Origin: Verrucomicrobiota bacterium | GTDB taxonomy: Bacteria > Verrucomicrobiota > Verrucomicrobiia > Verrucomicrobiales > Akkermansiaceae | DNA length: 64,000 bases | Direction: 5' to 3' | Assembly (NCBI GenBank): GCA_040386755.1 | Contig: JAZKEY010000004.1 | Span: 263,137 to 327,136 of the forward strand | Shown here: positions 4,794 to 25,975 of the stretch, in pieces | How positions within the stretch are numbered: position 1 is the stretch's first letter | Layout of the letters: every line of letters starts with the position of its first letter | Program-made: the position numbers and the translations under genes | Notes under the pieces: model-generated | What the model saw: only the letters and a program-made list of their open reading frames with translations | Database searches by the model: none | Told to the model about the DNA's origin: nothing

Positions 4794-4865
4794 AGAGCCG
4801 GATCATGATGCCGTAAACCGTCGCGGTTGCCTGCCGCATCCCAATCCATTCCCACCTTTATTTTC

Positions 4866-7800
4866 GTGAATCGCTCCCTGTTATCCGCTGGTCTAACTTG
4901 CTCATTCGGCATCGCCGTTTCCATCACCCCGCTGGAGGCCGCGCCGCAGTGGATCTGGTCGGCCAAGGAGGCGACATCCGGTCAGAAGGCCACCTTCGTC
5001 AAAAGTTTCACCGTCTCGGGACCGGTCAAATCCGCCCGCCTCAATTTTACCTGTGACAACGGCGCGACCGCTTTTCTGAACGGTCAGAAGGTCGCCGAAA
5101 ATCCGGATTGGAACGACCCCACCAGCGCGGATGTGGCCAAGCAGCTCAAGGCCGGCCAAAACGAACTCCGCTTCGACGCAAGGAACGAAGGCACCACCGC
5201 CGGCTTCGTCGCGACCTTGAAGATCGAAACCGCCGACGGGAAAAAATCCGTCATCGAGAGCGGCACCGATTGGACCGTCGCGCCCACCGGCAGCAGCGAT
5301 TTCAAACCCGCCGTGATGGTCGCGGCCTATGGCGGCGGCCCGTGGGGCACGCCACTGGATGGCGGTGCCAGCGTGCCCGACTCCACCGGGATCCAGGCAG
5401 CACCCGGTTTCTCCGTCGAGCTGCTCTACACCGTGCCGAAATCCCAACAGGGCTCCTGGGTGGTCATTACCGAGGACAACAAGGGCCGCCTCCTCACCAG
5501 CGACCAATACGGCGGCGTCTATCGGGTCACCCTGCCCCCCGCCGGGAAAAACGAGGAGCCCAAGGTGGAGCCCCTCACCCTTCCCAACGGGAAAAACGGC
5601 AAGCCCCTCGGTGGCGCACACGGCCTGTTATACGCCTTCGACAGCCTCTATCTGATGAACAACGAGATGGGCGACACCGGCCTGTGGCGCTTGTGGGACA
5701 CCGACCGCGACGACCAGTTCGACAAGGCCGAGTTCATCCGCAAGTGCGACGGCGGTGGCGAGCACGGCACCCACGGCATCGTCCTCGGACCCGATGGGAA
5801 ATCCATTTACTTCGCCAACGGCAACCACACCAAGGTCCCCGACAAAGTCGACTACATCCGCCCCGTCGCCATGGGTGAGGACCACCTCATCACCCGCCTG
5901 TGGGACGCCAACGGCCACGCCAAAGGCATCATGGCCCCCGGCGGCTATGTTTGCAAAACCGACCCCGAAGGCAAACGCGTCGAGCTCTTCGCCGGCGGTT
6001 TCCGCAACCAATATGACATCGCCTTCGACGCCAACGGCGAGCTCTTCACCTTCGACTCCGACATGGAATGGGACCTCGGCTCCCCTTGGTATATGCCCAC
6101 CCGCATCAACCACATCGTCAGCGCCGGTGACTACGGCTGGCGCTCCGGAGCCGGCCGCTGGCCCGAGTATTATGCCGACTCGCTGCCCGGCGCGGTGGAC
6201 ATCGGTCCCGGTTCGCCGACCGGCACCGTCTTCGGCACCGGTGCGAAATTCCCCGCGAAATACCAGCGCGCGATGTATGCCCTCGACTGGACCTACGGCA
6301 CCATGTGGGCCATCCACCTCAAGCCCGATGGTGCCAGCTTCAAAGCCGTGAAAGAGGATTTCATCTCCGGCAAACCCCTGCCCTTCACCGACGCCATCAT
6401 CCGCCGTGAGGACGGCGCCATGTATTTCACCACCGGCGGCCGCAAGAGCCAATCCGCCCTCTACCGCGTCACCTACACCGGCAAGGAAAGCACCACCGCC
6501 GCCGCGAAAATCGACCCCACCCCCGAGGCGAAACTCCGCCGCGCCTTGGAAACCCTCCATTCCCCCGACGCCGCCTCCGACGCCATTGCCAAAGCCTGGC
6601 CCTCGCTCGCCAGCAAGGACCGCTTCCTCCGCTTCGCCGCCCGCGAGGCCATCGAACGCCAGTCACCGGACAAATGGGCGGAAAAAGCCCTCGCCGAGAC
6701 CAACCCTCAAGCCTCCATCGAGGCCATCATCGCCCTCGCCCGCGTCGGTGACAAATCCCTCCAGCCCAAGCTCTTCGTCTCGCTCGGCCGCCTCGACTAT
6801 AACAAGCTCCCCGCCGACCTCCGCCTCGCTTACCTCCGCGCTTGGCAGCTCGTCTTCACCCGCATGGGCAAGCCCGCGCCGGATGTTTGTGCGAAAATCT
6901 CCCAGCGCCTCGATCCCCTGTTCCCCACCACCGACCCGCACGCCAACCGCGAGCTCGTCAACCTCCTCGTCTACCTCGACTCCCGCAGCATCGTCGCCAA
7001 GACCGTGCCCATGCTCGACACCGCCAAGGACGCCGACATCAACATCGCCAGCGAGGCCGTCCTCGCCCGCAACGTCGGCTACGCCAGCGCCGTCGCCGAC
7101 ATGCACGACAGCCACCCGAACCGCCAGGCCATCGCCTACGCCTACGCCCTGCGCGAGGCCAAAACCGGCTGGACCCCCGAGCTCCGCAAAACCTTCTTCG
7201 GCTGGTTCCCCCGCACCTCGAAATGGCGCGGCGGCAACAGCTTCAAAGGCTTCCTCAACACCATCCGCAGCGAAGCCCTCACCAACTGCGTGACCGACGC
7301 CACTGAGCGCGCCGCCCTCGACACCCTCTCCAAGCAGGCCCCGCCCGCTCCACCGGTGAACCTCGTCATGCCCAAAGGCCCCGGCAAGGACTACACCGCC
7401 GAGGAAATCGAGTCCCTCGCCAAGGACGGTATGAAAGGCCGCAACTTCGAGCAAGGCAAAGCCATGTTCTCCTCCCAGCTCTGCATCAACTGCCACCACT
7501 TCGGCGGTGACGGCGGCAACAGCGGCCCCGACCTCACCGGCTCCGGCAGCCGCTACACCGTCCGCGACCTCGCCGAAAACATCGTCGAGCCCTCCAAGGT
7601 CATCAGCGACCAATACCCCAGCGAGCAGATCGACCTCAAGGACGGCGGTGTCGTCGTCGGCCGTGTCGTCGTCGAAGAAAACGGCAAGCTCTTCGTCATG
7701 ACCAGCGCCCTCGCCCCCGACGCCCTCACCACCATCGATGGCGAAAACGTCAAGAACCGCCAGCCCTTCAGCATCTCCATGATGCCGCCCGGCCTGCTCA

Positions 7801-7880
7801 CCCCGCTGAACAAGGACGAGCTTCTCGACCTCATGGCCTACATCCTCTCCGGCGGAAATCCCAAGGATCCGAGGTTCTAG
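4866..7880 (+). CDS. PVC-type heme-binding (CxxCH) putative dehydrogenase: sugar-binding-like N-domain, beta-propeller, helical repeats, cytochrome c
   Basis: Signal peptide, GFRNQYDIAFDANGELFTFDSDMEWD propeller motif, CINCH heme motif, GPDLTG, SMMPPGL; likely GTG start 4866 (ORF track 4827). Confidence 0.85.
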   Translation: MNRSLLSAGLTCSFGIAVSITPLEAAPQWIWSAKEATSGQKATFVKSFTVSGPVKSARLNFTCDNGATAFLNGQKVAENPDWNDPTSADVAKQLKAGQNELRFDARNEGTTAGFVATLKIETADGKKSVIESGTDWTVAPTGSSDFKPAVMVAAYGGGPWGTPLDGGASVPDSTGIQAAPGFSVELLYTVPKSQQGSWVVITEDNKGRLLTSDQYGGVYRVTLPPAGKNEEPKVEPLTLPNGKNGKPLGGAHGLLYAFDSLYLMNNEMGDTGLWRLWDTDRDDQFDKAEFIRKCDGGGEHGTHGIVLGPDGKSIYFANGNHTKVPDKVDYIRPVAMGEDHLITRLWDANGHAKGIMAPGGYVCKTDPEGKRVELFAGGFRNQYDIAFDANGELFTFDSDMEWDLGSPWYMPTRINHIVSAGDYGWRSGAGRWPEYYADSLPGAVDIGPGSPTGTVFGTGAKFPAKYQRAMYALDWTYGTMWAIHLKPDGASFKAVKEDFISGKPLPFTDAIIRREDGAMYFTTGGRKSQSALYRVTYTGKESTTAAAKIDPTPEAKLRRALETLHSPDAASDAIAKAWPSLASKDRFLRFAAREAIERQSPDKWAEKALAETNPQASIEAIIALARVGDKSLQPKLFVSLGRLDYNKLPADLRLAYLRAWQLVFTRMGKPAPDVCAKISQRLDPLFPTTDPHANRELVNLLVYLDSRSIVAKTVPMLDTAKDADINIASEAVLARNVGYASAVADMHDSHPNRQAIAYAYALREAKTGWTPELRKTFFGWFPRTSKWRGGNSFKGFLNTIRSEALTNCVTDATERAALDTLSKQAPPAPPVNLVMPKGPGKDYTAEEIESLAKDGMKGRNFEQGKAMFSSQLCINCHHFGGDGGNSGPDLTGSGSRYTVRDLAENIVEPSKVISDQYPSEQIDLKDGGVVVGRVVVEENGKLFVMTSALAPDALTTIDGENVKNRQPFSISMMPPGLLTPLNKDELLDLMAYILSGGNPKDPRF

Positions 7881-8000: not shown

Positions 8001-8768
8001 ATGAATTTCGCGCTCCAATTTTCCATGCCCACCGACGCACAACGCCTCGCCACCCGCGAGCGCCCGACAGGCCTCCCCGTCATGCGCCAGCGTTGGTCCG
8101 GACTGCTCTTCCTCCACTGGCCGATCGAAATCTCCCTGATCCAAGCCCGCCTCCCACCCGGTTTGCACGTCGATACGTTCAACGGCCAGGCATGGATCGG
8201 CGTCGTGCCGTTTTTCATGGACCGCATCCGTCCGATCGGACATCCGCCGATGCCTTGGCTCTCTTGGTTCATGGAACTCAACGTCCGCACCTACGTCCAC
8301 GACGACACGGGAAATCCCGGCGTCTGGTTCTTCTCGCTCGATTGCAACCAACCGCTCGCCGTGGAAATCGCCCGCCGTGCGTTCCACCTCCCCTACCATC
8401 ACGCCGCCATGCGGAGCGAGAAATCCGGCCACCGCATCCACTACCGCTGCCAGCGGAAATCCGCCGACGCCCGGGAAGCCGCGTTCGACTACGAATCCCC
8501 CACCCACACCCAATCCGCCGTGCCCGGCTCGCTCGAATGGTTCCTCGTCGAGCGCTACCTCCTCTTCTCCACCAACCGCAGAAACGAACTCTTCAGCGGC
8601 CGCGTCCATCACACGCCCTACCAAATCGCGCCGGGGAAATGCGCTCACTGGTCCGCCGAGCCCCTGCGTTGGGAGGGATTTCCCGAGCCGGATTCATCCC
8701 CGCCTTCCCTCCTCACCGCCGATCCGGTGGACGTGACGGTTTTCCCCCTCCGCCGCTGTCGTGTTTAA
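8001..8768 (+). CDS. DUF2071 / YqjF family protein
   Basis: MRQRWSGLLFLHWP, FMELNVRTYV, GVWFFSLD, LEWFLVERY. Confidence 0.85.
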   Translation: MNFALQFSMPTDAQRLATRERPTGLPVMRQRWSGLLFLHWPIEISLIQARLPPGLHVDTFNGQAWIGVVPFFMDRIRPIGHPPMPWLSWFMELNVRTYVHDDTGNPGVWFFSLDCNQPLAVEIARRAFHLPYHHAAMRSEKSGHRIHYRCQRKSADAREAAFDYESPTHTQSAVPGSLEWFLVERYLLFSTNRRNELFSGRVHHTPYQIAPGKCAHWSAEPLRWEGFPEPDSSPPSLLTADPVDVTVFPLRRCRV

Positions 8769-8829
8769 AAATCCAATCACAACTGACTCACCCTCAGCTC
8801 TGTCCACCCTAAAAACCGTCGCCCGAAAC

Positions 8830-9081
8830 CCCGACCCGTTCACACGGACTGCCGATCGGTTGTCTGCCAGGCCCGAACCGTCCACCCGAAACCCCGACCG
8901 GTTGTCTGCCAAGGCCAAACCGTCCACCCGAAACCCCGAACCGGCGGCTGCGAAGCCCGAACCGTTCACCCAAAACCTCGAACCGTTGGCTGCCAGTCCC
9001 GAACCGTCCACCTGAAACCCCGAACCGTCGGCTGCCAGGCCCGAACCGTTGGCTGTTTGGCCCGAACCGGCCGCCCTGACG
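8830..9081. repeat. Degenerate 21-bp tandem repeat, 12 units, alternating into a 42-bp higher-order unit
   Basis: Type A CCCGAACCGTCCACCCGAAAC (e.g. 8872-8892) alternates with type B CCCGAACCGTTGGCTGCCAGG-like units (e.g. 8977-8997, 9019-9039). Confidence 0.9.
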
Positions 9082-9106
9082 GCCAAAACCGCCAGCCACC
9101 CGCCGA

Positions 9107-9302
9107 GGCAGGGACTGACCTCCGGGCAGTCAGGCGAATGAAAAGCAAATGTCCCGCCGCTGCGAAGCCGTTCCGTCCACCTCATCGGCCTCCTCATTCT
9201 CTCCACATTCTCAAGACCGCCCGGAATGCAGAGCGAGCGCTGGCGAGTCAAAAATCAACGCGAAGCGCACTACGCATGGCCGGAGGCAAGTCGGTCCCTG
9301 CC
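9107..9302. repeat. REP-like inverted pair
   Basis: GGCAGGGACTGAC (9107-9119) vs GTCGGTCCCTGCC (9290-9302), 12/13 complementary and extendable by CCTCCGG/CCGGAGG. Confidence 0.6.
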
Positions 9303-9304
9303 GG

Positions 9305-11026
9305 TTACTCACCGGCTTTCCCAAGCTCCTTCACCTTCGCCCGCGTCGTCGCCGGGAGGGTCTTCATCCACCGCTCCGCCGCCTCCGGATCATACAGCGA
9401 CCAGACGCTTTGCAGGTTCTTCGCGGCATATAGCTTCGCCTCGCTGTCGGGCAGGGACCGGATCCAGTCCCCCGCCTTTTCCGGGTTCTGCTTTCCAAGC
9501 TCCGCCACGTAGTCGGAGGTGAACTCGATGATTCGCGAAGGACCATCCGGGTCGCCCGAAACCGGCGCGTCCGCAGGATGGGCCACGAGGTAGGCCAGCG
9601 CCTCGCCTTTGAGTGGAAAATCCCCGTTGACCCCGGCGGCTCCGATGAATTGGGCCAGAGTTTTCTTCCGGGCATCCGGCAGCGAATGAAACCCGGCGAC
9701 CAGAGCGGCGGCCTTCTCCGGCTCCCAACCCTGCACCATCTGGAGGTATTCCCAGGAATCCTGACTCTGAGGATCAAGCGCTGCCGCGGTGGCCAGCCAC
9801 TCGGCGGGGTGTGGGATCGGTTTGATCTCCGCTTCCGGGCCGAATGGATCCGACTGAAGCGCCTTGCGGGCGATTTCCCGCTCCTCTTCCGAGCCGAGCA
9901 GCGCGAGCAGGGCCTCGGCTTTCTCGGGCTTGCCTTGCAGACTCTCGAAAATGGAGGCAAGTATGCGCGTTTTCTCATCCGGGAGCAAATCGAGCTCCGC
10001 CCACACTTGGAACGCGGCATCCGGATCGTCGTATTTAAGTCGCGACACTGCTAGAGTGCGGATCTTCCCGGCTTGCTCCGCCGTGAACCCCGCTCCTTCA
10101 AGATCCGCCGCCGCCCACTTCGCCGCGTCCACCCTGCCAATAAACGTAAAGGGGGTGGAAGCGATCTCGTCCCGCCATGAGGGCGGGAGATTCGCCAACT
10201 CATCGATCAGCTTTCCCCCAAGTTCCCCCGACCGGAGGAAAATGCTCCGCAACGTGTCAAAGCCGTCCGGACGATCCCAAAGTTTCCGCAGCTCGGTGGC
10301 GAAGGAGTCCTCCATTCTCCGGGCGATCAGGGATTTCTCCGCTTCGGATTTCAGCGCACTCGGCAGGGTGTCGAGGATCGCTCCGAGCGCGGCGGGCGCT
10401 TGTTTGGCGAGCTCCGCCAGCACATCCCCCGCATCGTCGCTGTTGGAAATCCCGGCGGCGGCCATTTCCTGGAAGCGCCGGAGGGCGAGTTCGGGGTGCT
10501 TCACGGCGATTTTCCCGAGGACAGCAAGTTCCATCGAGTCGCCGGGGTGGCTCTTGAAGAAGTCGAGCGCGCGCTGGGGCTCGGTTTCCGCCCAGCCGGA
10601 GAGCACGGAATCGGCGTCGGTGGATTTATTTTTCCGGCACCAAAGGAGATGACCTTCCGGGTCTTCCTGCCGCCAGCGTTCCATCAGGATTCCGGTGAAG
10701 ACGGTGGACTCCATGCCGCCGTCCAGGTTGAACCAACCGCCGTCCAGCCAGGTGGCGAACTGGGCGGACGGCAGGGTGCTGGCAAGATCGATGGTGGCCC
10801 GCAGCCGCTCCGCCGGGTCGGTGGAGGCGCGGATGGCGGCGAGGCGTTGCGCGGCCTCGCCGGCAGGACCGGGACGCACCCTCACCGGTCGCTCCGTGCG
10901 GGATGAGCGAGTGGCCGCAGGCGGCGGAACGGCGGGTGGTTCTCCGGAATTTCCACCGAGATTCCAGCCAGCGACGGCCATGCCGAGGAAGCAGAGTGCG
11001 AGAAGCGAAATGTGGGATTTGGACAT
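9305..11026 (-). CDS. Hypothetical membrane-anchored helical-repeat protein, family A copy 1
   Basis: 573-aa ORF; N-terminal hydrophobic anchor MAVAGWNLGG; paralogous to 12873-14591 (DPAERLRATIDLA vs DPAGRLRATIALA; WLDGGWF vs WLGGGWF). Confidence 0.8.
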   Translation of the reverse strand: MSKSHISLLALCFLGMAVAGWNLGGNSGEPPAVPPPAATRSSRTERPVRVRPGPAGEAAQRLAAIRASTDPAERLRATIDLASTLPSAQFATWLDGGWFNLDGGMESTVFTGILMERWRQEDPEGHLLWCRKNKSTDADSVLSGWAETEPQRALDFFKSHPGDSMELAVLGKIAVKHPELALRRFQEMAAAGISNSDDAGDVLAELAKQAPAALGAILDTLPSALKSEAEKSLIARRMEDSFATELRKLWDRPDGFDTLRSIFLRSGELGGKLIDELANLPPSWRDEIASTPFTFIGRVDAAKWAAADLEGAGFTAEQAGKIRTLAVSRLKYDDPDAAFQVWAELDLLPDEKTRILASIFESLQGKPEKAEALLALLGSEEEREIARKALQSDPFGPEAEIKPIPHPAEWLATAAALDPQSQDSWEYLQMVQGWEPEKAAALVAGFHSLPDARKKTLAQFIGAAGVNGDFPLKGEALAYLVAHPADAPVSGDPDGPSRIIEFTSDYVAELGKQNPEKAGDWIRSLPDSEAKLYAAKNLQSVWSLYDPEAAERWMKTLPATTRAKVKELGKAGE

Positions 11027-11052
11027 CGGGTGGAGGCGTCAGGATTCCCCGG

Positions 11053-11172
11053 CTTGGACTGCGTGCAGCCTGCTGCCGCTTTGGGTAACGCAGCCTGCTG
11101 CGGCCCGGCTTTTGCGGATACTCCGCCAGCAGGCTGGCGGAGAAAAGCGGCAGCGAGCTACCGCAGTCCAAG
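11053..11172. repeat. REP/MITE-like nested palindrome
   Basis: CTTGGACTGCG (11053-63)/CGCAGTCCAAG (11162-72); GCTGCCGCTTT (11072-82)/AAAGCGGCAGC (11144-54); inner CTCCGCCAGC (11121-30)/GCTGGCGGAG (11133-42). Confidence 0.75.
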
Positions 11173-11193
11173 GTGCGATGCACGGAGAAGGAT

Positions 11194-12756
11194 TCATCGC
11201 GGGCGGTCGAGGAGAGTTTGGATGATGGCCTTGCGCTCAGGCGGGAGGTCGGCGTTCTCCAACCAACGGGCCGGGGCTTCGGGGTCCTGCCGCAGCCACC
11301 TCGACAGGACACCGTCGAGGTCAGCCGTCTGGCGGAGGTCCATGCTGGCCGCCCACTCCGCGGCCTCCTGATAGTGGCTGGATTCCCTGAGGGCGCTGAC
11401 GATGCGGGAAACACCGCTTTGCCGGATGGCGGTGTCGGTCTGCTGGTTCACCCAGTCCGTGTAGCCGACGAGATCCTGCTGCACCCATTGGCGGGAATAG
11501 GAATCGAGCTGATCCTTTGCCAACTCCGGTGGGAGTGCGGCGATCATTTCCATGACCTGCTGCGGCTGCCGGACCATCAGGGAATTCATGAACTCGAGGA
11601 CGCCGGGAATTGCGAAGGACGGATGGGAGGTGCGATCCGGATACTCGATGGGGGCGCTCAGGTCCAACGCGCCGGGGCAGACGGTGAGGAGGGCTTGTGC
11701 GAACTGGAGGGCCTGCGCGGGATCGGTATGGACGAGGCTTTGGCCGATGGCGGCGTAGCGCTCGGCGGCGGTGCGCGGGACGGTGGTGGCTTTCGCCTGC
11801 TCCAGCGCGGCAGCGGGGTCGGTCTTGAGGAGATGGGCGAAGAGGGCGGATTCCATTTTCAACTTATCCTCCCCGGAAGGTGTCCGCTCGGCAATGCGGG
11901 CCAGTTCGTCCGGCGACTCTTCGGCGAGGGCCTGGATGATGGTCAATAGCGTTTCGTTTTCCTCACTGAAGGGATCACCACCGCTGTTGGGATTCTGCCG
12001 GGCCCACTCGACGGCGGCCCACGGGTCTTCGCGGGCGAAGGCATTGAGGGTGCCGGGATGGATATCGGAACCTTGCTGTTGGAGGAACTTGAGGGTTTCG
12101 AGGGGATTTTTCCCGCCGTCTTCGTTCAGGGAGCGGATGGCGGAGTGCTGGGCGCCGGTGGGGATTTCGTCGAAGTGTTTCAGCAGCCAGTCGGGTTGGA
12201 ATTTGCCGATGCCCTCGGCGACGCAATCCACGGACCCCGGACCGTCGGCAATGGCGGCGGCGAGGGCGGCTTGCGGATCATGGCAGGCCCAGGCCCACCA
12301 GGCGTTGGGCCGGGAATGGATTCCCTGAGTGCTGTCGATGGCGTGCTGCGGATCGAGGCGCGTCCAGTGGAGGAAGAGGAGGTTGGAGATTTCGGGGGTC
12401 CAATCTTCTTTTTTCGAATAACAGCCGCTCCAGAACGCGGCGATGTCCGGCTCGCTGGCGTCCACCAGCCAGAGGGCGAGGCGGGCGTAGAGATTGGCAT
12501 CGTCCAAGGCGGCGAGGGTTTCCAAGGTGTCGGTGGAATGGCGCGGCGGGAAGGCGGCGGCGGGAGGCGGGAGTTCTGCCGTGGGTTTTTCGGAGGCGGA
12601 GCGGGTTGAGTGGGAAATGTCTGGAGACGCCGGAGCGCGCGCGGTGGACCGCCTGACGGCAAGGCCGGTGCACAAGCCCGCCGCGGCGACGAGGATGAGG
12701 AGGTGGTGGAATTTCGGGTTCAACGGGGAGCGGCTGGGCGGAGTGGTTTTAATCAA
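11194..12756 (-). CDS. Hypothetical membrane-anchored helical-repeat protein, family B copy 1
   Basis: 520-aa ORF; N-terminal TM; paralogous to 14588-16066 (RLALWLVDASEPDIAAFW vs RLAMWLVDASEQDIAAYW; WWAWACHDP in both); start codon uncertain. Confidence 0.8.
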   Translation of the reverse strand: MIKTTPPSRSPLNPKFHHLLILVAAAGLCTGLAVRRSTARAPASPDISHSTRSASEKPTAELPPPAAAFPPRHSTDTLETLAALDDANLYARLALWLVDASEPDIAAFWSGCYSKKEDWTPEISNLLFLHWTRLDPQHAIDSTQGIHSRPNAWWAWACHDPQAALAAAIADGPGSVDCVAEGIGKFQPDWLLKHFDEIPTGAQHSAIRSLNEDGGKNPLETLKFLQQQGSDIHPGTLNAFAREDPWAAVEWARQNPNSGGDPFSEENETLLTIIQALAEESPDELARIAERTPSGEDKLKMESALFAHLLKTDPAAALEQAKATTVPRTAAERYAAIGQSLVHTDPAQALQFAQALLTVCPGALDLSAPIEYPDRTSHPSFAIPGVLEFMNSLMVRQPQQVMEMIAALPPELAKDQLDSYSRQWVQQDLVGYTDWVNQQTDTAIRQSGVSRIVSALRESSHYQEAAEWAASMDLRQTADLDGVLSRWLRQDPEAPARWLENADLPPERKAIIQTLLDRPR

Positions 12757-12760
12757 GGAG

Positions 12761-12869
12761 AGGCGGACTCCGATCCGCCTGGGTCAATGAGATGAGGTTA
12801 CCCGTGATTCATTGGCTTGGGCGATTCGGAGATCGCCCTTCCTTGTTAGCAGGGACGAGGCGTCCCTGC
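12761..12869. repeat. Three short intergenic hairpins, one REP-like
   Basis: AGGCGGA/TCCGCCT (12761-80), GGGCGAT/ATCGCCC (12819-38), GCAGGGACG-AGG-CGTCCCTGC (12849-69, same GCAGGGAC core as 9107). Confidence 0.55.
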
Positions 12870-12872
12870 CCC

Positions 12873-14591
12873 CTATTTTTTCGTGATCTTTCGGACCTCG
12901 GCTTGGGTAGCGGGCGGGAGGGTCTTGAACCATTGGTCGGCGGCCTTGGGGTCGTAACCGGACCAGAGGGAATGGAGGTTCGCCTGGGCCCAGAGCTTGG
13001 GCTCGCCATCGGGGAGGGTCTGGATCCAGTCGCGGGCGGTTTCGGGTTCGTCGATGGCAAGCTTGGCAATGTAGTTCGACGTTTTTCCGACCAAAGGGGT
13101 CGGGGTGCCGGGCACCGCCTCGGCCGGGTGGGTGAGCAGGTAGCGGAGGGCCTCGCCGACGAGGGGTGGCTGAGATTCCATGGCGGAGACGCTGCCGGTG
13201 ATGGCTCGGGCGACTCGTTGTTTCTGGTCGTCCGGCAGGGTTTGGAATTGGTCACCGATCATGGCGAGCTGTTCCGAATTCCAACTTCTCAGCAGCCATG
13301 CGTAATCGGAATGGGACCCGGGGTCGATGGTGGTGAACTTGGCCAGCCACTGCTCGGGAGTTTCGACGGAATCGGCGGCATCGCTGTCGTTCTTTTCCTC
13401 CATGCTTTCCAGGATGCTCGCGGCAGCGTTGCGATCTTCCTCCGTCGTCAAAAGGGCGATGAGATCCGCGGTTTTATCCGGCCAAGCGGCGAGCGCGTTG
13501 GCGATGGTCTCCCACCGGTCGTCCGAAATTTCCTGCTCCGATTCGGGGCGACGAATTTCCAATCCCGCCAGCCGCTGGAGGGCGAGTTCCGGGTTTTTAT
13601 GGGCGATTTCCCGCAAGGCCCGGGTCTGGAGATGATTTGCTTCGGACTTGGAGAAGCCAACGGCGATGAGGTCGATGTTCCACCATTTTTCCGCGCTTTC
13701 GGCGTCGCTGTAGCCGCCCGCATGAGCAACGATCCGTTTGAGCCATTCGGGCGGAAGAGCGGTGAGATCGTCCAAAATGGCCGCATGCATTCCATCCACT
13801 TGGGAGGCGATTTCCTCGTAAATCTCGAAGCCGTCGGGCCGGGACCAGAGTTTCCGAAACTCGCCGGCGTAGTCATTCTTGAAATTCACGAAGAGCAGCA
13901 ACCTCTCCACCTGGGTCCTCATGGAACCCTTGAAGGAATCCAGCGCGGCTTCGAGAGCGGCGGGCGATTTCTCGGCCAAGGTCTCGAAAAGGTCGGAATT
14001 GAAGAGACGGTCACCCTTCATTTCCAACAGGCACTGGAGCGCGAGGTCCGGATGGGTCTTGGCGAGGTCGGCCAGCGCGGCGAGTTGGGCGGAGTTGTCC
14101 GGGTGGCGTTTGAAGAAATCGAGGAACTGCTGCGGCTGGCTTGCCGCCCACGATGCCAGTGTGGCGGGCACGCGGCGAGACTCGTTTTTGATGCTCCAGA
14201 GGAAGAAGCCTTCCGGGTCTTCCCGCCACCAGCGCTCGCGGAGGATATTGGAGAAAAGCGTGAACTCCGCGCCGTTCCGCAGGGAGAACCAGCCGCCGCC
14301 CAGCCACTTACCGAACTCGGAAACCGGGAGAGCATTGGCAAGGGCGATGGTGGCGCGCAGCCGCCCGGCGGGATCGGCGGCATTGCGGATGGTGGCGAGT
14401 CTCGCGTGGGCGAGATTGCTTGGGCTGGTAGGCCGGGATGGGCGCTGCCGGGAGGAACGAGTGGCGTGGGGACCGTCCGTGGATTTCCCGGAATCCCTTT
14501 CCGAAGATTCGCCAGCGAGAATCCAGCCGAGCACGGCCATGGCCAGGAATCCGGCGGCTCCGGGGACGATGTGGTTAGGGGGAAATTTCAT
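12873..14591 (-). CDS. Hypothetical membrane-anchored helical-repeat protein, family A copy 2
   Basis: Likely start ATG 14591 (MKFPPNHIV...MAVLGWILAG) overlapping the upstream stop as ATGA; ORF track extends to 14879. Confidence 0.8.
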   Translation of the reverse strand: MKFPPNHIVPGAAGFLAMAVLGWILAGESSERDSGKSTDGPHATRSSRQRPSRPTSPSNLAHARLATIRNAADPAGRLRATIALANALPVSEFGKWLGGGWFSLRNGAEFTLFSNILRERWWREDPEGFFLWSIKNESRRVPATLASWAASQPQQFLDFFKRHPDNSAQLAALADLAKTHPDLALQCLLEMKGDRLFNSDLFETLAEKSPAALEAALDSFKGSMRTQVERLLLFVNFKNDYAGEFRKLWSRPDGFEIYEEIASQVDGMHAAILDDLTALPPEWLKRIVAHAGGYSDAESAEKWWNIDLIAVGFSKSEANHLQTRALREIAHKNPELALQRLAGLEIRRPESEQEISDDRWETIANALAAWPDKTADLIALLTTEEDRNAAASILESMEEKNDSDAADSVETPEQWLAKFTTIDPGSHSDYAWLLRSWNSEQLAMIGDQFQTLPDDQKQRVARAITGSVSAMESQPPLVGEALRYLLTHPAEAVPGTPTPLVGKTSNYIAKLAIDEPETARDWIQTLPDGEPKLWAQANLHSLWSGYDPKAADQWFKTLPPATQAEVRKITKK

Positions 14592-16066
14592 TGGCGGAGG
14601 AGGTTCCTGATGTTCTGCTTCTTCTCTTCCGGAAGATTGGCGGCTTCCAGCCATTCGCGGGGTTCCGCCGGGTTGATCTGTCCCCACTGATAGAGCATCG
14701 TGCCGAGGTCGTGTGAGCCGGTGGCCACGGTCAGAGTCATGATCCACTCGACGGCATCCCGATATTGATGGTCCCGTTGCAACTGCCCGATGAGTTTGTT
14801 GGCAGCGTCGTCGTGGATGGAGGGATCGGTTTGGCGTTTGGCCCACTCCGCGTAGGCCGCCACATCGCGTTCCAGCCATTGCTCGCTGAGTTCGTCAAAT
14901 GCGTAATCCCGATCCGAGGTGGCGGTGATCGTGTCCATGAGTCTAACCGGATTCTCCGTTAGCAAGGCATTCAACAGCTCGCGGACTCCCCGGTTCCCGG
15001 TGCTCCAACCTCCACGGCTGCCCGGAACTTGGAACGAATGCGGCGTCATCAGGGCATCCGGGCAGGCGGTGAAGAGATCCTTCGTCAGTTCAAATGCTCT
15101 GGCGGGATCGGTTTTCACGAGGGCGAGACCGACGGCGGCGAAGCGTTCGGCGGCGATCCTCGGCGCATCGGCGGCCTTGGCTTGGGCGATGGCCGCCTCG
15201 GGATCGGTCTTGATGAGGTTGGCGAAAAGGGCGGCTTCCATCTTCCGCTTGATCTCGCCGGAGGGGGATTGCGCGGCAAGGCGGGCGAGTTCGTCCGGGC
15301 GTTCTTCGGCCAGCTGTGCGATGAGCGGGTCCATGCCGGATCGGTTTTTCTTCGCCCACTCCAAAGCGGCCCATGGGTCCTTGCTGACGAAGGCGCGGAA
15401 CGTCGGGAGATCGAGTCCCATCCCGTGTTCCTTGGAGAATTCGAGCATTTCCAAGGGATTTCCCGCGTCGCCCCATTGCGCCAATGCGGAGAGCGCCTCC
15501 TGCCTCGCCTCCTCGGGGATTTTATCGAAATGCGCGCGCAGCCATGCGGGATGAAATTCGCCGAGGCCGCGGGCTACATGGATCACCAGCTCCGGACCGG
15601 CGGTTAGAGCGGCGGCGAGAGAGCCTTGCGGGTCATGGCAAGCCCACGCCCACCACGCGAAATCCTCGTCTTCGGTTCCGGCGGTGGCGTCGATGGCTCC
15701 TTGCGGATTCAGGCGGGTCCAGTTGAGGAAAACCAGGCCGGTGCTTTCGTTGTCCCGTTTTCCTTTCGAATAGATCGCCCAGTAGGCGGCGATGTCCTGC
15801 TCGCTGGCGTCCACCAGCCACATGGCGAGGCGCGAGTAGCGCTCACTGTTAGGCAGCGCGGCAAGGGTTTCCACCGTGTCGGTGGAGCGGGGCATTTCCG
15901 GAACGGCGGCGACCGGCGCGGGGGCTTCCGCCCGGCCGGTGGATTCACCTGCCACCGGGGCCGGGGAAACGGTTGGGACGGCGATGGATCGCCTGGCAAC
16001 AAGGCCAACCGGCAAGCCGGCGACACACAGCCCGATGACGATGAGAGAGATGGGTTTTCGCTTCAC
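14588..16066 (-). CDS. Hypothetical membrane-anchored helical-repeat protein, family B copy 2
   Basis: 492-aa ORF, MKRKPISLIVIGLCVAG anchor, motifs shared with 11194-12756. Confidence 0.8.
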   Translation of the reverse strand: MKRKPISLIVIGLCVAGLPVGLVARRSIAVPTVSPAPVAGESTGRAEAPAPVAAVPEMPRSTDTVETLAALPNSERYSRLAMWLVDASEQDIAAYWAIYSKGKRDNESTGLVFLNWTRLNPQGAIDATAGTEDEDFAWWAWACHDPQGSLAAALTAGPELVIHVARGLGEFHPAWLRAHFDKIPEEARQEALSALAQWGDAGNPLEMLEFSKEHGMGLDLPTFRAFVSKDPWAALEWAKKNRSGMDPLIAQLAEERPDELARLAAQSPSGEIKRKMEAALFANLIKTDPEAAIAQAKAADAPRIAAERFAAVGLALVKTDPARAFELTKDLFTACPDALMTPHSFQVPGSRGGWSTGNRGVRELLNALLTENPVRLMDTITATSDRDYAFDELSEQWLERDVAAYAEWAKRQTDPSIHDDAANKLIGQLQRDHQYRDAVEWIMTLTVATGSHDLGTMLYQWGQINPAEPREWLEAANLPEEKKQNIRNLLRQ

Positions 16067-16145: not shown

Positions 16146-17138
16146 TTAATCCTGATTCGCCTCCAGCTCCGCCACCGTCACGCGGTCGCTTTTCTTCAGG
16201 AAAAACAACGCGCCGAGACCGGCCCAGAAGACATTGCAGGCGAAGCCCGCGAGCGAGGCGGCGATGGCGGTTTCCGGCGGCACTCCGGCCAGATCCTTCA
16301 TCAGCACCTCGAACAATTTCTCCCGCACGCCGACGCCCGCGATGGAGATGGGCAAGGCGCTGATAGAGTCGATGACCGGCATCGCGGAAACCACCGCGCC
16401 GTAGCCCGCCGTGCCGCCGACGGCGCGCATGCCGCAGTAGTAGGAAGAGAAATACGCGAACAGCATGACAAACGAAACGGCCAGACCACCGAGCGCGAAC
16501 CGCCAGTTTTTCCGATAGACATCATACAGCTCGGGAATTTTCCGCATGATCGGAAACCGCGCGAACCGGTCGTTGCCATGAATCCGCCGGTGCACCGGCG
16601 GCGAGGCGCAGACGAAGATCATCGCCACCATCGCAAGTCCGCCGCCCAGATAGAACCAGGCAAAATGGATCACGCCGCGGCCGAGGATGCTCTGGTCCAC
16701 GATGGCATCGAACCTCGCGACCGAGATGATGAAAAATAACAGCGCCAGCGAAACCAGCCCCGCCAGATGATCCGCCATCACCGCCATCGCGATGACCAGC
16801 TTCTTCCCCGGCAGGTCGCGCATGAGCAGGAGGATGCGCGCGGCATCGCCACCGAGCCCGCTAACAGAAGCGAGGTTGAACAGGCTGTCGATCATCGTCA
16901 GCTCGACGGCGCGCCCGAGTTTCACCGGCAGCGATTGGCCGCGCAGGAACAACCACCAGCGCAGCGCGTGCAGCACGATGGAAGCACCCGCCAACGCCGC
17001 GCCACCGGCGAGCCAGCGGTAGTCAATGGCACCGGGGCGGGTGAAGATCGAGCGGTCGAACTTCACTTGAGAGAACGCCCACCACAGGCAGAGTCCGGTA
17101 AGAGCCAGCTTGAGGAGGAAAATCAGGAACGCCTTCAT
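16146..17138 (-). CDS. Lysylphosphatidylglycerol synthase TM-domain (UPF0104, flippase-like) membrane protein
   Basis: Multi-TM; ALRWWLFL, GLGGDAARI, LPISIAGVGVRE. Confidence 0.8.
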   Translation of the reverse strand: MKAFLIFLLKLALTGLCLWWAFSQVKFDRSIFTRPGAIDYRWLAGGAALAGASIVLHALRWWLFLRGQSLPVKLGRAVELTMIDSLFNLASVSGLGGDAARILLLMRDLPGKKLVIAMAVMADHLAGLVSLALLFFIISVARFDAIVDQSILGRGVIHFAWFYLGGGLAMVAMIFVCASPPVHRRIHGNDRFARFPIMRKIPELYDVYRKNWRFALGGLAVSFVMLFAYFSSYYCGMRAVGGTAGYGAVVSAMPVIDSISALPISIAGVGVREKLFEVLMKDLAGVPPETAIAASLAGFACNVFWAGLGALFFLKKSDRVTVAELEANQD

Positions 17139-17159
17139 GCCAGCTGATAGAAAGCCGGC

Positions 17160-17417
17160 CTAGGCGGATTTCTCAATCTCGCGGGCGATCGATTCCACGT
17201 TTTCGAGGATGGCTTTCGCGGCGTCCGAGTTGCCGATCTTCAAGCCGAAATGTTTTTCCAAACCGACGACGAGCTGTAGAGCGTCCACCGAATCGAGGCC
17301 GAGCCCGCCGGCACCGAAGATCGGAACGGTGTCGCTGATTTCCGACGGGGATTGCTCCAGCATGAGCTCGTCCACCATCACTTCCTTGATCTTCTGTCGT
17401 AGTTCCGCGCCTTGCAT
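17160..17417 (-). CDS. Acyl carrier protein
   Basis: Acidic 85-aa protein, GLGLDSVDALQLV phosphopantetheine site; likely start ATG 17417 (ORF track 17444). Confidence 0.9.
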   Translation of the reverse strand: MQGAELRQKIKEVMVDELMLEQSPSEISDTVPIFGAGGLGLDSVDALQLVVGLEKHFGLKIGNSDAAKAILENVESIAREIEKSA

Positions 17418-17427
17418 GATAATTGAG

Positions 17428-18153
17428 TTAGAAAATTCCGCCATCGATCTTCAGCGCGGCTCCGGTGATGTAGGCCGCGTCGGCACTTGCTAGAAAAAAC
17501 ACCGCGGCGGCGACTTCCTCCGGTTTGCCGAAGCGGCGCATCGGGATGCCGCGTTTCGCGTTTTTCCTCGCCTCCTCGTCCATCCCGCCGAGCGCGTCGG
17601 TTTCGATGAACCCGGGGAGGATGGAATTCACGGTAATGCCGGATCTAGCGACTTCCTTCGCCAGTGTCTGGCCTAACGAAACCACACCGGCTTTGGCCGC
17701 GGCGTAATTGGTCTGGCCTAACGGCGGCAGCAGGGCGCTGAGCGAGGCGATGTTGATGATGCGTCCGGAGCGCTGGCGCATCATCGGCGTGACCACCGCG
17801 CGGCAACCGTGGAAGACCGCGTCGAGATTGGCGGCGATGACCGAGTGCCACGCGTCGTCCGGCATCGCGGCGAGTAGGCAATCGCGGTGCATGCCGGCGT
17901 TGTTGATGAGCACGTCGAGGCGGCCGTCGGTCTCGAGGATTTTCCCAACCGCCGCTTTCCACGCATCCGGGCTGGTGACCTCGAGATCGATCAGGAAACA
18001 GCGCCCGGGAAATTCACGGGCGAGGGATTCCGCCAGACCGCGGTTGGCCCGGACCCCGAGCCAGACCCGCGCTTCGGGATCATGATCGAGGAAATACCGG
18101 GCGATCCCCAGACCGAGCCCGCCATTTCCACCAGTGACCAAAACCGAACGCAC
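17428..18153 (-). CDS. fabG: 3-oxoacyl-ACP reductase-like SDR
   Basis: TGGNGGLG, NNAG, NYAAAK (YxxxK), PGFIET, IDGG. Confidence 0.8.
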   Translation of the reverse strand: MRSVLVTGGNGGLGLGIARYFLDHDPEARVWLGVRANRGLAESLAREFPGRCFLIDLEVTSPDAWKAAVGKILETDGRLDVLINNAGMHRDCLLAAMPDDAWHSVIAANLDAVFHGCRAVVTPMMRQRSGRIINIASLSALLPPLGQTNYAAAKAGVVSLGQTLAKEVARSGITVNSILPGFIETDALGGMDEEARKNAKRGIPMRRFGKPEEVAAAVFFLASADAAYITGAALKIDGGIF

Positions 18154-18349: not shown

Positions 18350-18591
18350 GAGAAATTAACAGATTTTTATATTTTTGGAATTGTCGCAAATCTACACATC
18401 GCGGGCGCATTGATACAAGTCGATCACAGGTTCGGAGCTAAAGTCTCAGGGATTCCGGTCGTGATCCGATTCGGAACACCAACGTTCAAAAACCCAATCA
18501 GGAACCGAGCTCGAACCCATCGAGTCCCTGTTCCCGTGAGTGCGAGCTCAGCGTGCCTGAATCAACCCAACCCAACCGCAACCCATCGATT

Positions 18592-21500
18592 ATGAAACCC
18601 CGTTTCCTGTCTCCGTCATCCACCACCACTCTGACCAAATCCTTCCACCCGGCAGCCGCGTTTTTCGCCGGCGTCCTCGCTTTCACCGCGACCGGCCCGC
18701 TTGAAGCCGCCTCCGACACTTGGGACAACGGTGCCGCGGACAACAACTGGCAGTCGGTCAACAACTGGGTTTTAAATGCGACATTTCCCGGACTGAACAC
18801 CAATGTTTACACCAGCACCGAGGACGCGACCTTCAGCGCCACCGGGGCCACCGGCACGGTCAATCTCGGTAACCAAATCAACCTCAGGAGCCTGATTTTC
18901 GGCGTCGCAGCAGGAAATGCGGCCTCGTTCACCCTCGGCGACGCGAATGACGTTCTGAACCTCACCACCGCTGGCGGCGTTACCGTCAATGCCGGTGTCA
19001 CCACCGCGCAGAACATCGGCTCTGCCGGAACCACCATCAATCTTTCCAACGCCTCCGCCGCCTCCGCGACCTTTACCAATAACAGCACGAACCTGCTCAC
19101 GGTCGCCGGCAACGTGGTCGCCAACGGTGCGGGCACGGGCGCGACTATCGCCCTATCACCCCTCCTGACCGTCACCGGCAGCGGAAACACCACCATTTCC
19201 GGCACGGTCTCCAAAGTCACCCACAACGCGCTTCTGAAAACCGGCGCTGGAACACTGACCCTGACCAACGGCAGTTCCTTCAGCGGCGCGGGTGCCATCG
19301 GCTACGTTCCCGCCACTGCCGCCGGCTTTCCGCTGGTGGTGCGCGAGGGCACTTTGTTGCTCAACGGAGGAACACACGCCTCCACCGGAGAGATTGTCAT
19401 TGGCGGCGTCGTGGCAAACGGCGGTGCCGGTCAGAACGCGAAAATCCAAGTCGACTCCGGCTCGATGACGGTGAGTTCGTGGCTTTCCGTCGGCCGCGGA
19501 AACGGTGTGGGTGGAGTCTCATCGGACCTCGCCTTGAACAATGGCGCGACCGTCACCTCCGCCAACTACAGCGGCGGCTTCAACGGGGGCAACGCTGCCA
19601 ATCTCGTCAAGGGTTCGATCACCCTGAATGGAACCTCCATGATGACCGTCACCGGAAATGATGGCAATTTCAACCATGGCGAGTCTACCGGTTCCAACCT
19701 CACCTTGACCCTCAACAATACGGCCACTTTGGTGCACAATGGAGGCGCTTCCGGAACAAAGATCGGCCTCTCCGGTCGTGGTATTCTGAACAACGCCAGC
19801 GTCGGCAGCACGGTCGACGTCCGCAACCTCATCATCGGGCAAGCTGCCAACGGAATCGGCGCGGTGTATAACAAAGGCACCCTGAAAACCGTCAATGACG
19901 GCTATTTCCTCGGAGACGGCAGCGGCAGCTCGAGTTATCTGCGAAACGACAATGCCCTGGCCACCGTGGCGAATGACAATGCGGGCAACCTGGCGGTCGG
20001 TATCGGACTGAACAGCAACGCGGTCACGGACGTCATCAGCGGCAGTCTGTCCGCGACAAGGATCCTTCTCGGCGCGTTCAACAGCAACGCATCCAACGGC
20101 CAGATCAACGTCACGGGCGGCACCCTTTCGAGCGGTGCGACGGGCACCTCCATCACCGACAGCGCGGCCCGTCAGAACAAGTGGGGAAACATCAACGTCA
20201 CCGGCGCCGGTGTCTTCGCGAATCCTACCACCATCAACCTTTCCTCGAGTCCCTTTGCCAACAACACCGGCATCCTCTCGATCGCGTCCGGAGGCACCGT
20301 GACCGCAGACACCATTATTACAAACGGAGCTCTGCCCAATGCCTATGTCAATTTCGACAGCGGCACTCTTCGCGCCAGTTCCGGCACCTCCGCCGCGCTG
20401 ATCGACACCAACATCGACCGGGTCACGGTTTATGGCGGCGGCGGCACCATCGACACCAATTCATTCAACAAGAACATTGACCGCATCATCGCCGCACCGA
20501 CCGGCAACGGCGTGACCAGCGTCGCCATCAGCGCCACCGGCACCGGCTACCTCGGACGCCCGCTGGTGAAAATCACCGGCGACGGAACCGGAGCCACCGC
20601 GATGGCTGATTTCAACCTGGCCACCGGCGAGGTCACCGGTATCACCGTCACCAGTCCCGGTGCGGGCTACACCACTGCGACAGTGACGGTCACCGGAGGC
20701 GGCGGCACCGCCATCACCGCCACGCCGACGCTTTCCGCTCCCACTGCCGGCGGCATCACCAAGGCCAGCGCTGGCACCCTGACTCTATCAGCCGCTAACA
20801 CCTACACCGGCCCCACCCTGGTCAACGGCGGCAAACTCAGCGTCACCGGCTCCCTCGCGAGCAGCAGCGCCGTCACGGTCGCCAACGGGGCGACCTTGGG
20901 CGGCACCGGCACGGTGAATGGCACCACCACCGTTTCCACCGGCGGCATCGTCGAAGGCGGCGTCAACGCGACCGGCAAGCTCAACCTCAGCGGACTCGCC
21001 TTCAACGGCGCTGCCAGCGTGAAGATCGGAACACTCTCCAACTATGCCGCGAGCACCGCCATCGGTGCCGGAGCATTAAGCACGGCGGGCGGTGCGGGTG
21101 CCGTGGTCATCAACATCGCCTCGCTCGGTGCCGCGACCGCTCCCAGCACCTACACCCTCATCGACTACACCGGCGGCTCCATCGGCGGAACTGGTTTTTC
21201 CGGTTTCTCCCTTGCTGCTCTGCCCAGCCGCGCCCTCGGCAGCCTTGTCGATACCGGCAGCCAGATCAACCTGTCCCTCACCAGCCTGGATTTCCTCAAA
21301 TGGACCGGAAACTCCGGGAGTTCATGGGACACGACCACCTCCAGTTGGAAACTCAACTCCAACAACAATGCCACCCTGTACATCAACTCGCCGGGTGATT
21401 CCGTGGTCTTCGACGACTCAGCCGTTCCCAATTTTACCGTGGATATCAGCACGGCGGACGTGAGTCCCACGAGCGTGACGTTCAACAACACCCTCACCAA

Positions 21501-24216: not shown

Positions 24217-24227
24217 ACCTCCCACCC

Positions 24228-24270
24228 AACGCCCCGGCTGGACCCGTTCCGGCCGGGGCGTTTTGTTTTT
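24228..24270 (+). terminator. Intrinsic terminator
   Basis: AACGCCCCGGCTGGA (24228-42)/TCCGGCCGGGGCGTT (24248-62) followed by TTGTTTTT. Confidence 0.85.
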
Positions 24271-24770
24271 CAGAAAGGAAGCCCGGCTTTTCGATAGATG
24301 AAATGCATCAGCCACGCCGGACCGATGAGGAGGAACTGGACGTCCTTCAAAAACGACGGCTTTTTGCCTTCCACATGGTGCCCGAAAAATTGGAACACCC
24401 ACGAAACCGCGAAAATCCCCGCGCAGATTCCCCACAACGGAATCGATACGTGAGAGGAAATGAAACCCACCAGCACCAGACACCCGGCGCTAAAAAACAT
24501 CAACCCGAGTGCCAATGACGGCGACAGGATCACATAATAAATCCCGACAACGATCACCGCTGGCAGCGCCCAATTCGCCAGATTTCCCAACCACGGTTCC
24601 AACTCAGCCAACGGCCCCGGCGGGATGCAGGCAATCAGGCCGAGAATGCTGAAAAAAATCGCGGGCACGCAGATCCAATGGATGATCTCATTGGTCGCAT
24701 TCTGATGGCTGTCGCCGTATTCGGCCAGCAGCCGGTCGATTTTCCGCAGCGATGTTCGTGAAGTTGGCAC
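24270..24770 (-). CDS. DUF962 / Mpo1-like membrane protein (2-hydroxy fatty acid dioxygenase family)
   Basis: EYGDSHQNATNEIIHWICVP and WVFQFFGHHVEGKKPSF motifs; probable GTG start 24770 (ORF track 24929). Confidence 0.8.
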   Translation of the reverse strand: MPTSRTSLRKIDRLLAEYGDSHQNATNEIIHWICVPAIFFSILGLIACIPPGPLAELEPWLGNLANWALPAVIVVGIYYVILSPSLALGLMFFSAGCLVLVGFISSHVSIPLWGICAGIFAVSWVFQFFGHHVEGKKPSFLKDVQFLLIGPAWLMHFIYRKAGLPF

Positions 24771-24822
24771 CGGACAATGAACTAGCCGTTTCAAATCCAT
24801 CATGCAATGCTTCCCGCCATTC

Positions 24823-25905
24823 ATGAAAACTCCCCGGCTTGTATTCGTCGTCCTGATTTCAGCAATGGGTATTTCCATGGCCGATGAAGACCCGCCGATC
24901 AACCGCGCACAATTCATCGGCACGCACAATTCCTATCACATCGCACCCTCGCCGAAGGTTCGCCACTTGATCGAAACAGTCGCAAAGGGCGAGGGCGACG
25001 CCATCAACTGCACCCAGCGCCCCCTAACTGAGCAACTGGAGAAACTCTCCATCCGCCATTTCGAGCTCGATCTCTACGCCGATCCCAAAGGCGGGCTGTT
25101 CTCGAATCCGCTCGCAGCCACCCTCGTCGGAGAAATTAATCCGCATCCTGATCCGCTATGGAAGCAGCCGGGGCTAAAAATCCTGCATAGTCCTGATTTC
25201 GACTTCCGCACCACGGTTCCCACCTTTCGTAAAGCCCTTCAGGAACTCGCCGCCTGGTCCAAGGCACATCCGAAACATGAGCCGCTGATGATTCTGCTAG
25301 AGCTGAAACAGGATTCGTTTTCCCCGAAGACCCGACCGCTGCCGTTTGACGAAGCGCAGCTCAAGACCGTCGAAACGGAAATTCTCGCGGAACTCGCGAA
25401 GGAACAAATTCTAACACCGGATCAGGTGCGCGGCGATTTCCCCACCCTGCACGATGCCGTCACGAAACGCGGTTGGCCGAAACTTTCCGAAGCCGCCGGA
25501 AAATTCATCTTCTGCCTCGATAACGAAGGCGTGGTCCGCGACCGCTATCTCGCGCTTTCACCGGCAAAGAACCTAACTGGCCGATTGCTCTTCACCAGTG
25601 TCCCGCGTGATCACCCGGCGGCGGCGTGGATGAAGCGGAATGATCCGGTCGGCGGCTTCGATGAAATCCAGTCCCTCGTGAAAACCGGTTTCATGGTCCG
25701 CACCCGCGCCGATGGCAACCTCAAGGAAGTCCGCGCCAAGGATTACACCCGTTTCAAGAAAGCCGTGGCCAGCGGTGCGCAATGGATCAGCACCGATGCG
25801 CCCGAGGAAATTCCGGAGTTCCCCGGCTATCGCGTCGGCTGGGAAAACGGTCGAGTGTGGCAGCTAAGGAGCGTGGGACTGTGGCCCACGAAGCCGATGG
25901 AGTGA
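24823..25905 (+). CDS. Exported phosphoinositide-specific phospholipase C-like protein (PI-PLC X domain)
   Basis: Signal peptide; QFIGTHNSYH, IRHFELDL, GAQWISTD; likely start 24823. Confidence 0.8.
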   Translation: MKTPRLVFVVLISAMGISMADEDPPINRAQFIGTHNSYHIAPSPKVRHLIETVAKGEGDAINCTQRPLTEQLEKLSIRHFELDLYADPKGGLFSNPLAATLVGEINPHPDPLWKQPGLKILHSPDFDFRTTVPTFRKALQELAAWSKAHPKHEPLMILLELKQDSFSPKTRPLPFDEAQLKTVETEILAELAKEQILTPDQVRGDFPTLHDAVTKRGWPKLSEAAGKFIFCLDNEGVVRDRYLALSPAKNLTGRLLFTSVPRDHPAAAWMKRNDPVGGFDEIQSLVKTGFMVRTRADGNLKEVRAKDYTRFKKAVASGAQWISTDAPEEIPEFPGYRVGWENGRVWQLRSVGLWPTKPME

Positions 25906-25975
25906 GAAAGCGCTGCGCGAAGCTCATTTCTTTCGCTTCCCATCGACCCGGTGGGCCGAAGTCCCACCCTTACCC

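Follow-up and report, generated by a model that had tools for sequence, protein, structure and literature searches.

We have analyzed a pair of genes, here called B and A, that is present twice in tandem in a 64,000-nucleotide (nt) stretch of the genome of a Luteolibacter-like verrucomicrobial bacterium (contig JAZKEY010000004.1). The whole of this stretch is referred to as the window, and coordinates are positions within it unless another contig or locus is named. The tandem array occupies positions 9305-16066 of the minus strand, where four long open reading frames (ORFs) follow one another in the order B2-A2-B1-A1 and encode two types of protein. Judged from the sequences, A and B form a single unit in inheritance, duplication and loss, and mostly in translation too. 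Because they are always inherited and duplicated together, and mostly translated together, it is very probable that they act as a pair. As to the role of this obligate, co-translated B-A pair, we propose, with confidence that is about evenly balanced, that it is a membrane-tethered, probably periplasmic, heteromeric binding scaffold.

Inheritance of the B-A unit

A prediction made earlier from this DNA alone had described a tandem B-A-B-A module of diverged homologs, and all four reading frames are found where it placed them (Table 1). A1 and A2 share 39% identity over their full length (E = 7e-126) and the two B proteins share 44% (E = 9e-126), values that chance does not approach; B2 matches the B-family profile with a score of 658 bits. 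The start of A2 was set at 14591 rather than at the upstream limit of the longest ORF because both the family alignment and the ATGA junction with B2 point to that position. This junction, in which the stop codon of B2 overlaps the start codon of A2, is present in the sequence as had been predicted, and suggests translational coupling of the two genes. B1 and A1 are separated by a spacer of 167 nt, so that of the two pairs in the window only B2-A2 overlaps. The spacer from A2 to B1 is 117-150 nt.

Pairing was counted across 151 genomes from the GTDB family to which this bacterium belongs, taking hits at E ≤ 1e-15 and a partner within 1.5 kb. A partner was found for 31/32 A hits and for 31/32 B hits, the exceptions being a fragment of A of 135 amino acids (aa) and a divergent pair whose genes lie 1.6 kb apart. 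We assembled a set of 27 intact pairs, drawn from 25 loci. In every one of the 27 the order is B then A on one strand. The genes overlap by 4 nt (ATGA or GTGA) in 20 pairs, and five more have junctions of -11 to +4 nt. Coupling is absent only from B1-A1 of the window and from the orthologous pair of L011, where the gap is 87 nt; L011, which keeps one unit, is the closest relative that shares the flanks of the window. Pairs as divergent as 37-45% identity still hold both the order and the overlap. Where copies have degenerated, with stop codons or truncations, they have done so as pairs (G010, G112 and G135).

Maximum-likelihood trees of A and B for the 27 pairs are congruent, with a cophenetic correlation r = 0.93 that was reached in 0 of 2000 permutations. 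One clade that is recovered in both trees (support 0.97-0.99) unites the pair of L011 with the two from the window and the two from Luteolibacter yonseiensis, the last of which are also arranged B-A-B-A. There is no supported branching order inside this clade. The tandem pair of G057 falls in a separate clade (support 0.90-0.98), and therefore tandem duplication of the whole unit has occurred at least twice. The B-A-B-A array of the window represents an old tandem duplication of this kind, which has left two cognate pairs. The fixed A:B unit that the original prediction had drawn from the single overlap is thus strongly supported by comparison, through obligate adjacency, constant order, prevalent overlap, congruent trees and repeated duplication of the unit. 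The same prediction had called the system diversifying. This finds no support, since the copies are old paralogs in which many positions are invariant over deep divergence.

As a separate observation, in the first pair of L. yonseiensis (L010; B 8441-9997, A 10001-11752) the genes are separated by a 3-nt gap and are in frame across a single stop codon. Read-through of that stop would yield a natural B-A pseudo-fusion spanning 8441-11752.

How widely are these proteins distributed? Homologs of A (64) and of B (95) are limited to Luteolibacter and its verrucomicrobial relatives, and every one is annotated as hypothetical. Within the set of 151, the ~20 genomes that carry A are also those that carry B, and 2-4 copies are frequent; of 301 genomes sampled across the phylum, only that of the window and one other, which belongs to the same GTDB family, contained A. 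When 1.84 billion cluster representatives were searched with the B profile, 232 matched at E ≤ 1e-30, which we take as the family itself, and 6744 matched at E ≤ 1e-3, which correspond to a superfamily. Collections of plasmids and phages, examined for a mobile-element origin, contained no relatives of A or B, and literature searches returned no description of either family. That the proteins belong to no named family, as the original prediction held, agrees with the database searches. In Pfam and NCBIfam scans none of the four proteins reached the cut-off of a family (HEAT, ARM, TPR, Sel1 and PPR included), sequence searches of the PDB with A and B gave no match, and neither did the PADLOC models of anti-phage defence. 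The locus encodes two new protein families restricted to one lineage, within a large unnamed superfamily of repeat proteins.

Architecture of the proteins and a proposed scaffold

Confident AlphaFold2 models were obtained for B1 (predicted local distance difference test, pLDDT, 87.2; predicted template-modelling score, pTM, 0.73) and A1 (pLDDT 83.6), using alignments of 31 sequences. Each model begins with an N-terminal helix, followed by a disordered stretch at approximately residues 24-57 and then by ~30 helices arranged in pairs. The helix pairs are predicted to stack in antiparallel fashion into an open superhelix, which places the proteins in the alpha-solenoid (HEAT/ARM-like) class, and neither model contains beta structure except for one short hairpin in B. 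The disordered linker is rich in Ser, Pro and Arg. The models and the hydropathy profiles agree with the layout of one N-terminal transmembrane helix, a Ser/Pro/Arg linker and helical repeats that had been predicted for these proteins.

Foldseek comparison with the PDB returned generic HEAT/ARM solenoids with low TM-scores for all of the top matches. The best are eukaryotic proteins, i.e., CAND1, karyopherin-beta and the large subunits of AP adaptors, which share the superhelix of two-helix repeats with the models; with TM-scores of 0.13-0.33 and identities of 9-15%, and with these proteins being soluble and cytosolic, the likeness is one of fold class only. The fold class is thus clear from the models, yet there is no specific relative among the solved structures. 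Profile-profile comparison of A with B using hhalign gave a probability of 94% (E = 1e-7) over the C-terminal ~260 columns, and on this evidence A and B are distant paralogs.

The membrane helices of both families are conserved in sequence, beyond bare hydrophobicity. That of the B family carries a GxxxG motif (G27 90% conserved, G31 96%) and is followed by R36 (87%), while that of the A family has Phe13 conserved at 87% and Gly20-Trp21 at 100%. In the repeat body of B the motif WWAWACHDP has W153, W156, D160 and P161 in all of 31 family members. All of the motifs quoted in the original prediction are present in both copies; its Cys-His pair, however, is not invariant, since the Cys is conserved at 83% and the His at 87%. 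A catalytic Cys-His in this motif was rejected on account of their variability. A lipoprotein reading of the GLC sequence in B was also rejected, the residues ahead of the Cys being unlike a lipobox as read from the sequence.

We infer from the sequences a physical contact between A and B, a periplasmic location and a scaffold role, which could fit together as follows. B and A would be made from one transcript, mostly by translational coupling, leading to their joint appearance at the membrane, and each would be held in the inner membrane by its single N-terminal helix. A disordered linker of ~30-50 residues would carry a HEAT/ARM-like solenoid of ~450-500 residues, most probably in the periplasm. 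The membrane helices, the solenoids or both would then associate, the contact being mediated by the conserved small-residue motifs of the helices, by the repeat bodies or by both, to form a heteromeric platform that might bind some ligand of the envelope, either a protein or a glycan. With a cytoplasmic part of about six residues and neither a catalytic nor an output domain, the pair would be an adaptor or scaffold rather than an enzyme or a self-contained signal transducer. The suggestion in the original prediction that the system is a sensor is doubtful in view of the lack of a cytoplasmic output domain.

A number of findings weigh against this proposal. Coupling has been lost in B1-A1 of the window and in its L011 ortholog, and therefore a fixed ratio of the two proteins is not indispensable. 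The congruence of the trees is expected from linkage alone, and is no proof of contact. No natural in-frame fusion of B to A was found; a protein of 1070 aa (P0297) considered as a Rosetta-stone fusion arises from frameshifted read-through; it includes a junk segment that is out of frame, and the membrane helix of A still lies in its middle. Lastly, the topology of B is ambiguous. The tail that precedes the membrane helix averages 6.9 aa for A and 6.1 aa for B over the 27 pairs, and by the positive-inside charge balance an orientation with the N terminus inside is favored for A in 19/27. The corresponding figures for B are 10 with the N terminus inside, 9 tied and 8 outside, because the conserved Arg-Arg comes after the B helix.

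The first two of these findings would also fit if A and B were independent, co-expressed paralogs, that is, separate anchored binders (of different envelope ligands, for example) that remain adjacent only through shared regulation and inheritance and form no complex. The other superfamily members in this genome, described below, are mostly single genes, which again fits such an arrangement. On the other hand, independence would not readily account for near-absolute co-occurrence in a fixed order across deep divergence, nor for the decay of pairs together, and the membrane helices bear conserved small-residue motifs of a type typical of helix packing. We regard independence as a possibility of some weight, though not a likely one.

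A wider superfamily and its sigma-factor fusions

The genome that contains the window encodes ~20 further ORFs that are matched by both the A and the B profiles. Nearly all have an MK start, a hydrophobic helix, a Ser/Arg-rich linker and repeats of the form W-x3-DP-x2-A-x2-W, which correspond to helix-turn-helix units. A and B have the features that define this superfamily, i.e., an N-terminal membrane helix, a low-complexity linker, a repeat body and profile homology; hhalign gives probabilities of 98.6-98.7% for both against the regular anchored members, where, as in the comparisons that follow, the scores may be inflated by repeat composition.

Some members are fused to sigma factors. On contig C17 of the same genome, positions 20848-27589 contain two tandem units in which an extracytoplasmic function (ECF) sigma factor is joined to one strong membrane helix and a helical body. 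The fusions are ~667 aa in length, and each overlaps by 4 nt a gene for an anchored solenoid of 420-434 aa, termed the '+1' partner. A third anchored paralog lies at C17:29115-30422, and another sigma fusion (C1:206111-207964) is encoded divergently from a solenoid gene (C1:204826-206007). The sigma domain of such a fusion has to lie in the cytoplasm, and with one strong membrane helix in the protein this puts the solenoid in the periplasm. Their layout places the type of solenoid found in B-A outside the cytoplasm, and by analogy A and B themselves are most probably periplasmic. In general design the tethered sigma fusions are comparable to sigma/anti-sigma hybrids such as IutY (review PMC8999054).

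The fusions and their '+1' partners resemble B-A in the type of repeat and in the succession of anchor, linker and solenoid. Both are also pairs of paralogous anchored solenoids that overlap by 4 nt, and both are tandemly duplicated. Unlike the C17 units, B-A has neither a sigma domain nor a directly adjacent sigma gene, and A and B form distinct families, well separated and limited to a single GTDB family. A and B match the '+1' partners by hhalign at 96.6%, whereas against the bodies of the sigma fusions they give 5-9%, i.e., no detectable similarity, B included; these bodies are themselves linked to other superfamily members at ~95%.

Could the B-A pair then act on sigma factors in trans? 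The pair might sense a periplasmic cue and dock through its solenoids or helices on tethered ECF sigma factors of the superfamily that are encoded elsewhere, as a sensor or co-sensor, which comes near to the sensor of the original prediction. The similarity to '+1' partners that overlap sigma fusions suggests such a role, as does P0161, a weak match to B that is itself a fusion of sigma domain, membrane helix and solenoid. Against this, sigma-like ORFs were seen within 5 kb at no more than 2/25 B-A loci, none being directly adjacent and none at the locus in the window; the genomic contexts of B-A are variable, A and B have no output domain, and the solenoids of the fusions are those to which they show no similarity. 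We consider a sensory role in trans to be quite unlikely.

The link to ECF and anti-sigma-like sensory domains made in the original prediction is supported at a remote level only. There is remote homology (hhalign 96-99%) to anchored solenoids, some of which follow ECF fusions, but the scarcity of nearby sigma-like ORFs and the short N-terminal tail do not fit the link. Transmembrane anti-sigma factors (ASD/zf-HC2, RskA, FecR) have a cytoplasmic N-terminal domain of ~50-90 residues, whereas the tail of A and B is ~6-7 residues long and therefore too short for an anti-sigma domain; the anti-sigma domains of Pfam gave no match in the A and B proteins.

A broader idea is that all of the superfamily works by the pairing of paralogs, an anchored solenoid of either type locking onto one of the other through membrane helices and repeat bodies, that this contact controls the tethered sigma factor in the fused branch, and that B-A is the free-standing form. 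This is a very long shot. In one variant of it A would face the periplasm, while B, with its helix followed by the conserved Arg-Arg, would face the cytoplasm. If A and B did lie on opposite faces, binding could be relayed across the membrane without a classical signaling domain, or the pair could be an adaptin-like membrane adaptor in a bacterium of the Planctomycetes-Verrucomicrobia-Chlamydiae (PVC) group.

The tethered scaffold that we favor resembles some known proteins in its general design. CcmI and YfgM are TPR-type periplasmic scaffolds anchored in the inner membrane. Another case is PflA/PflB from the flagellar motor of Campylobacter (PDB 9hmf), which Foldseek matched weakly, with a TM-score ≤ 0.17 and a generic structural likeness. 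All of these share with the proposed B-A scaffold an N-terminal anchor, a helical-repeat binding platform in the periplasm and the lack of a catalytic domain. A and B have no sequence relationship to any of these proteins, which are not obligate pairs of paralogs, and B-A has no flagellar or cytochrome-maturation genes nearby. The membrane-coat-like proteins of PVC bacteria combine an N-terminal beta-propeller with an alpha-solenoid and are soluble or peripheral, whereas A and B have an N-terminal membrane helix and no propeller.

Anchored helical-repeat proteins make up a major unannotated share of verrucomicrobial genomes, with ~20 in this one and thousands of clusters in metagenomes. B-A is the cleanest case where comparative data demand the joint action of two such proteins. 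It offers a tractable two-gene entry point, with clear predictions, to what the repeat binds, and may show how the related tethered ECF sigma factors are controlled. What it defines at present is two lineage-restricted families and a rule of obligate pairing; it reveals no new mechanism.

Features and surroundings of the locus

The features of the locus are collected in Table 1, together with those of contig C17. The hairpin and T-run in the spacer between B1 and A1 may attenuate, or partly terminate, transcription between these genes.

Table 1. Features of the B-A-B-A locus, its neighbors and the sigma-fusion units (window positions, except where contig C17 is named)
Feature	Position	Strand	Remarks
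B2 gene	14588..16066	-	492 aa; GTG start, TGA stop; N-terminal membrane helix, disordered linker, predicted alpha-solenoid
A2 gene	12873..14591	-	572 aa; ATG at 14591; longest ORF reaches 14879
Overlap of B2 stop and A2 start (ATGA)	14588..14591	-	CGC CAA TGA / ATG AAA
B1 gene	11194..12756	-	520 aa from TTG 12756; 509 aa from TTG 12723 (start on record)
A1 gene	9305..11026	-	573 aa
B2 membrane helix	15989..16051	-	~aa 6-26; hydropathy peak 2.53; GxxxG then RR
A2 membrane helix	14511..14564	-	~aa 10-27; hydropathy; invariant Gly-Trp at its end
B1 membrane helix	12652..12708	-	aa 17-35 counted from 12756; AlphaFold helix 14-36; hydropathy
A1 membrane helix	10952..11014	-	aa 5-25; AlphaFold helix 4-23; hydropathy
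GC-rich hairpin between units	12849..12869		Directly past A2 stop
Hairpin and T-run in B1-A1 spacer	11147..11164	-	Spacer of 167 nt
Terminator-like hairpin and T-run	9256..9272	-	33 nt past A1 stop
FabG-like short-chain dehydrogenase/reductase (SDR)	17428-18153	-	Reductase; trio
Small acyl carrier protein	~17161-17415	-	Trio
LPG_synthase_TM / flippase-like membrane protein	16146-17138	-	Trio
Sigma fusion / '+1' partner, first unit	C17 25586-27589 / 24285-25589		
Sigma fusion / '+1' partner, second unit	C17 22113-24122 / 20848-22110		

The original prediction proposed a survey of related genomes for obligate pairing and for neighbors. Pairing is obligate, as described above, but clustering of the flanking ORFs at the 25 loci revealed no third gene common to more than 3 of them, and the contexts vary widely.

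In the window the B-A units lie on the same strand as, and 80 nt downstream of, a trio of genes (16146-18153) for a FabG-like reductase, an acyl carrier protein and an LPG_synthase_TM protein, which may form a module for the modification of membrane lipids. Might B-A be an accessory of this module, working with its three products? The same adjacency is seen in L011, and in G127 and G025 the trio is found in the opposite arrangement, next to divergent B-A pairs. The trio is kept in 17/24 related genomes tested, whereas a B-A or B-A-like pair adjoins it at 4/19 trio loci, in two arrangements, and most B-A pairs are located elsewhere. An accessory role in lipid modification is highly improbable. 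The trio was dropped as a general functional link to B-A, and is a weak lead.

Some other features of the window may be recorded. Divergent from the SDR gene, positions 18553-24216 (plus strand) encode a protein of 1887 aa with six passenger-associated transport (PATR) repeats. A PATR protein is also encoded near the B-A-B-A array of L. yonseiensis (L010 3140-5215). The presence of PATR genes near both arrays is probably a coincidence, because PATR proteins are common in the phylum. On the other side of the array, positions 4827-7880 (plus strand) encode a secreted-looking protein of 1017 aa, whose sole Pfam match is a C-terminal cytochrome c domain and which is absent in L011. Between a DUF2071 gene and A1, which are convergent, the intergenic region contains a 42-bp tandem repeat at 8852-9049 (4.7 copies, 83% matches, with a sub-period of 21 bp). 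This repeat occurs once in the genome and creates a spurious repetitive ORF of 185 aa.

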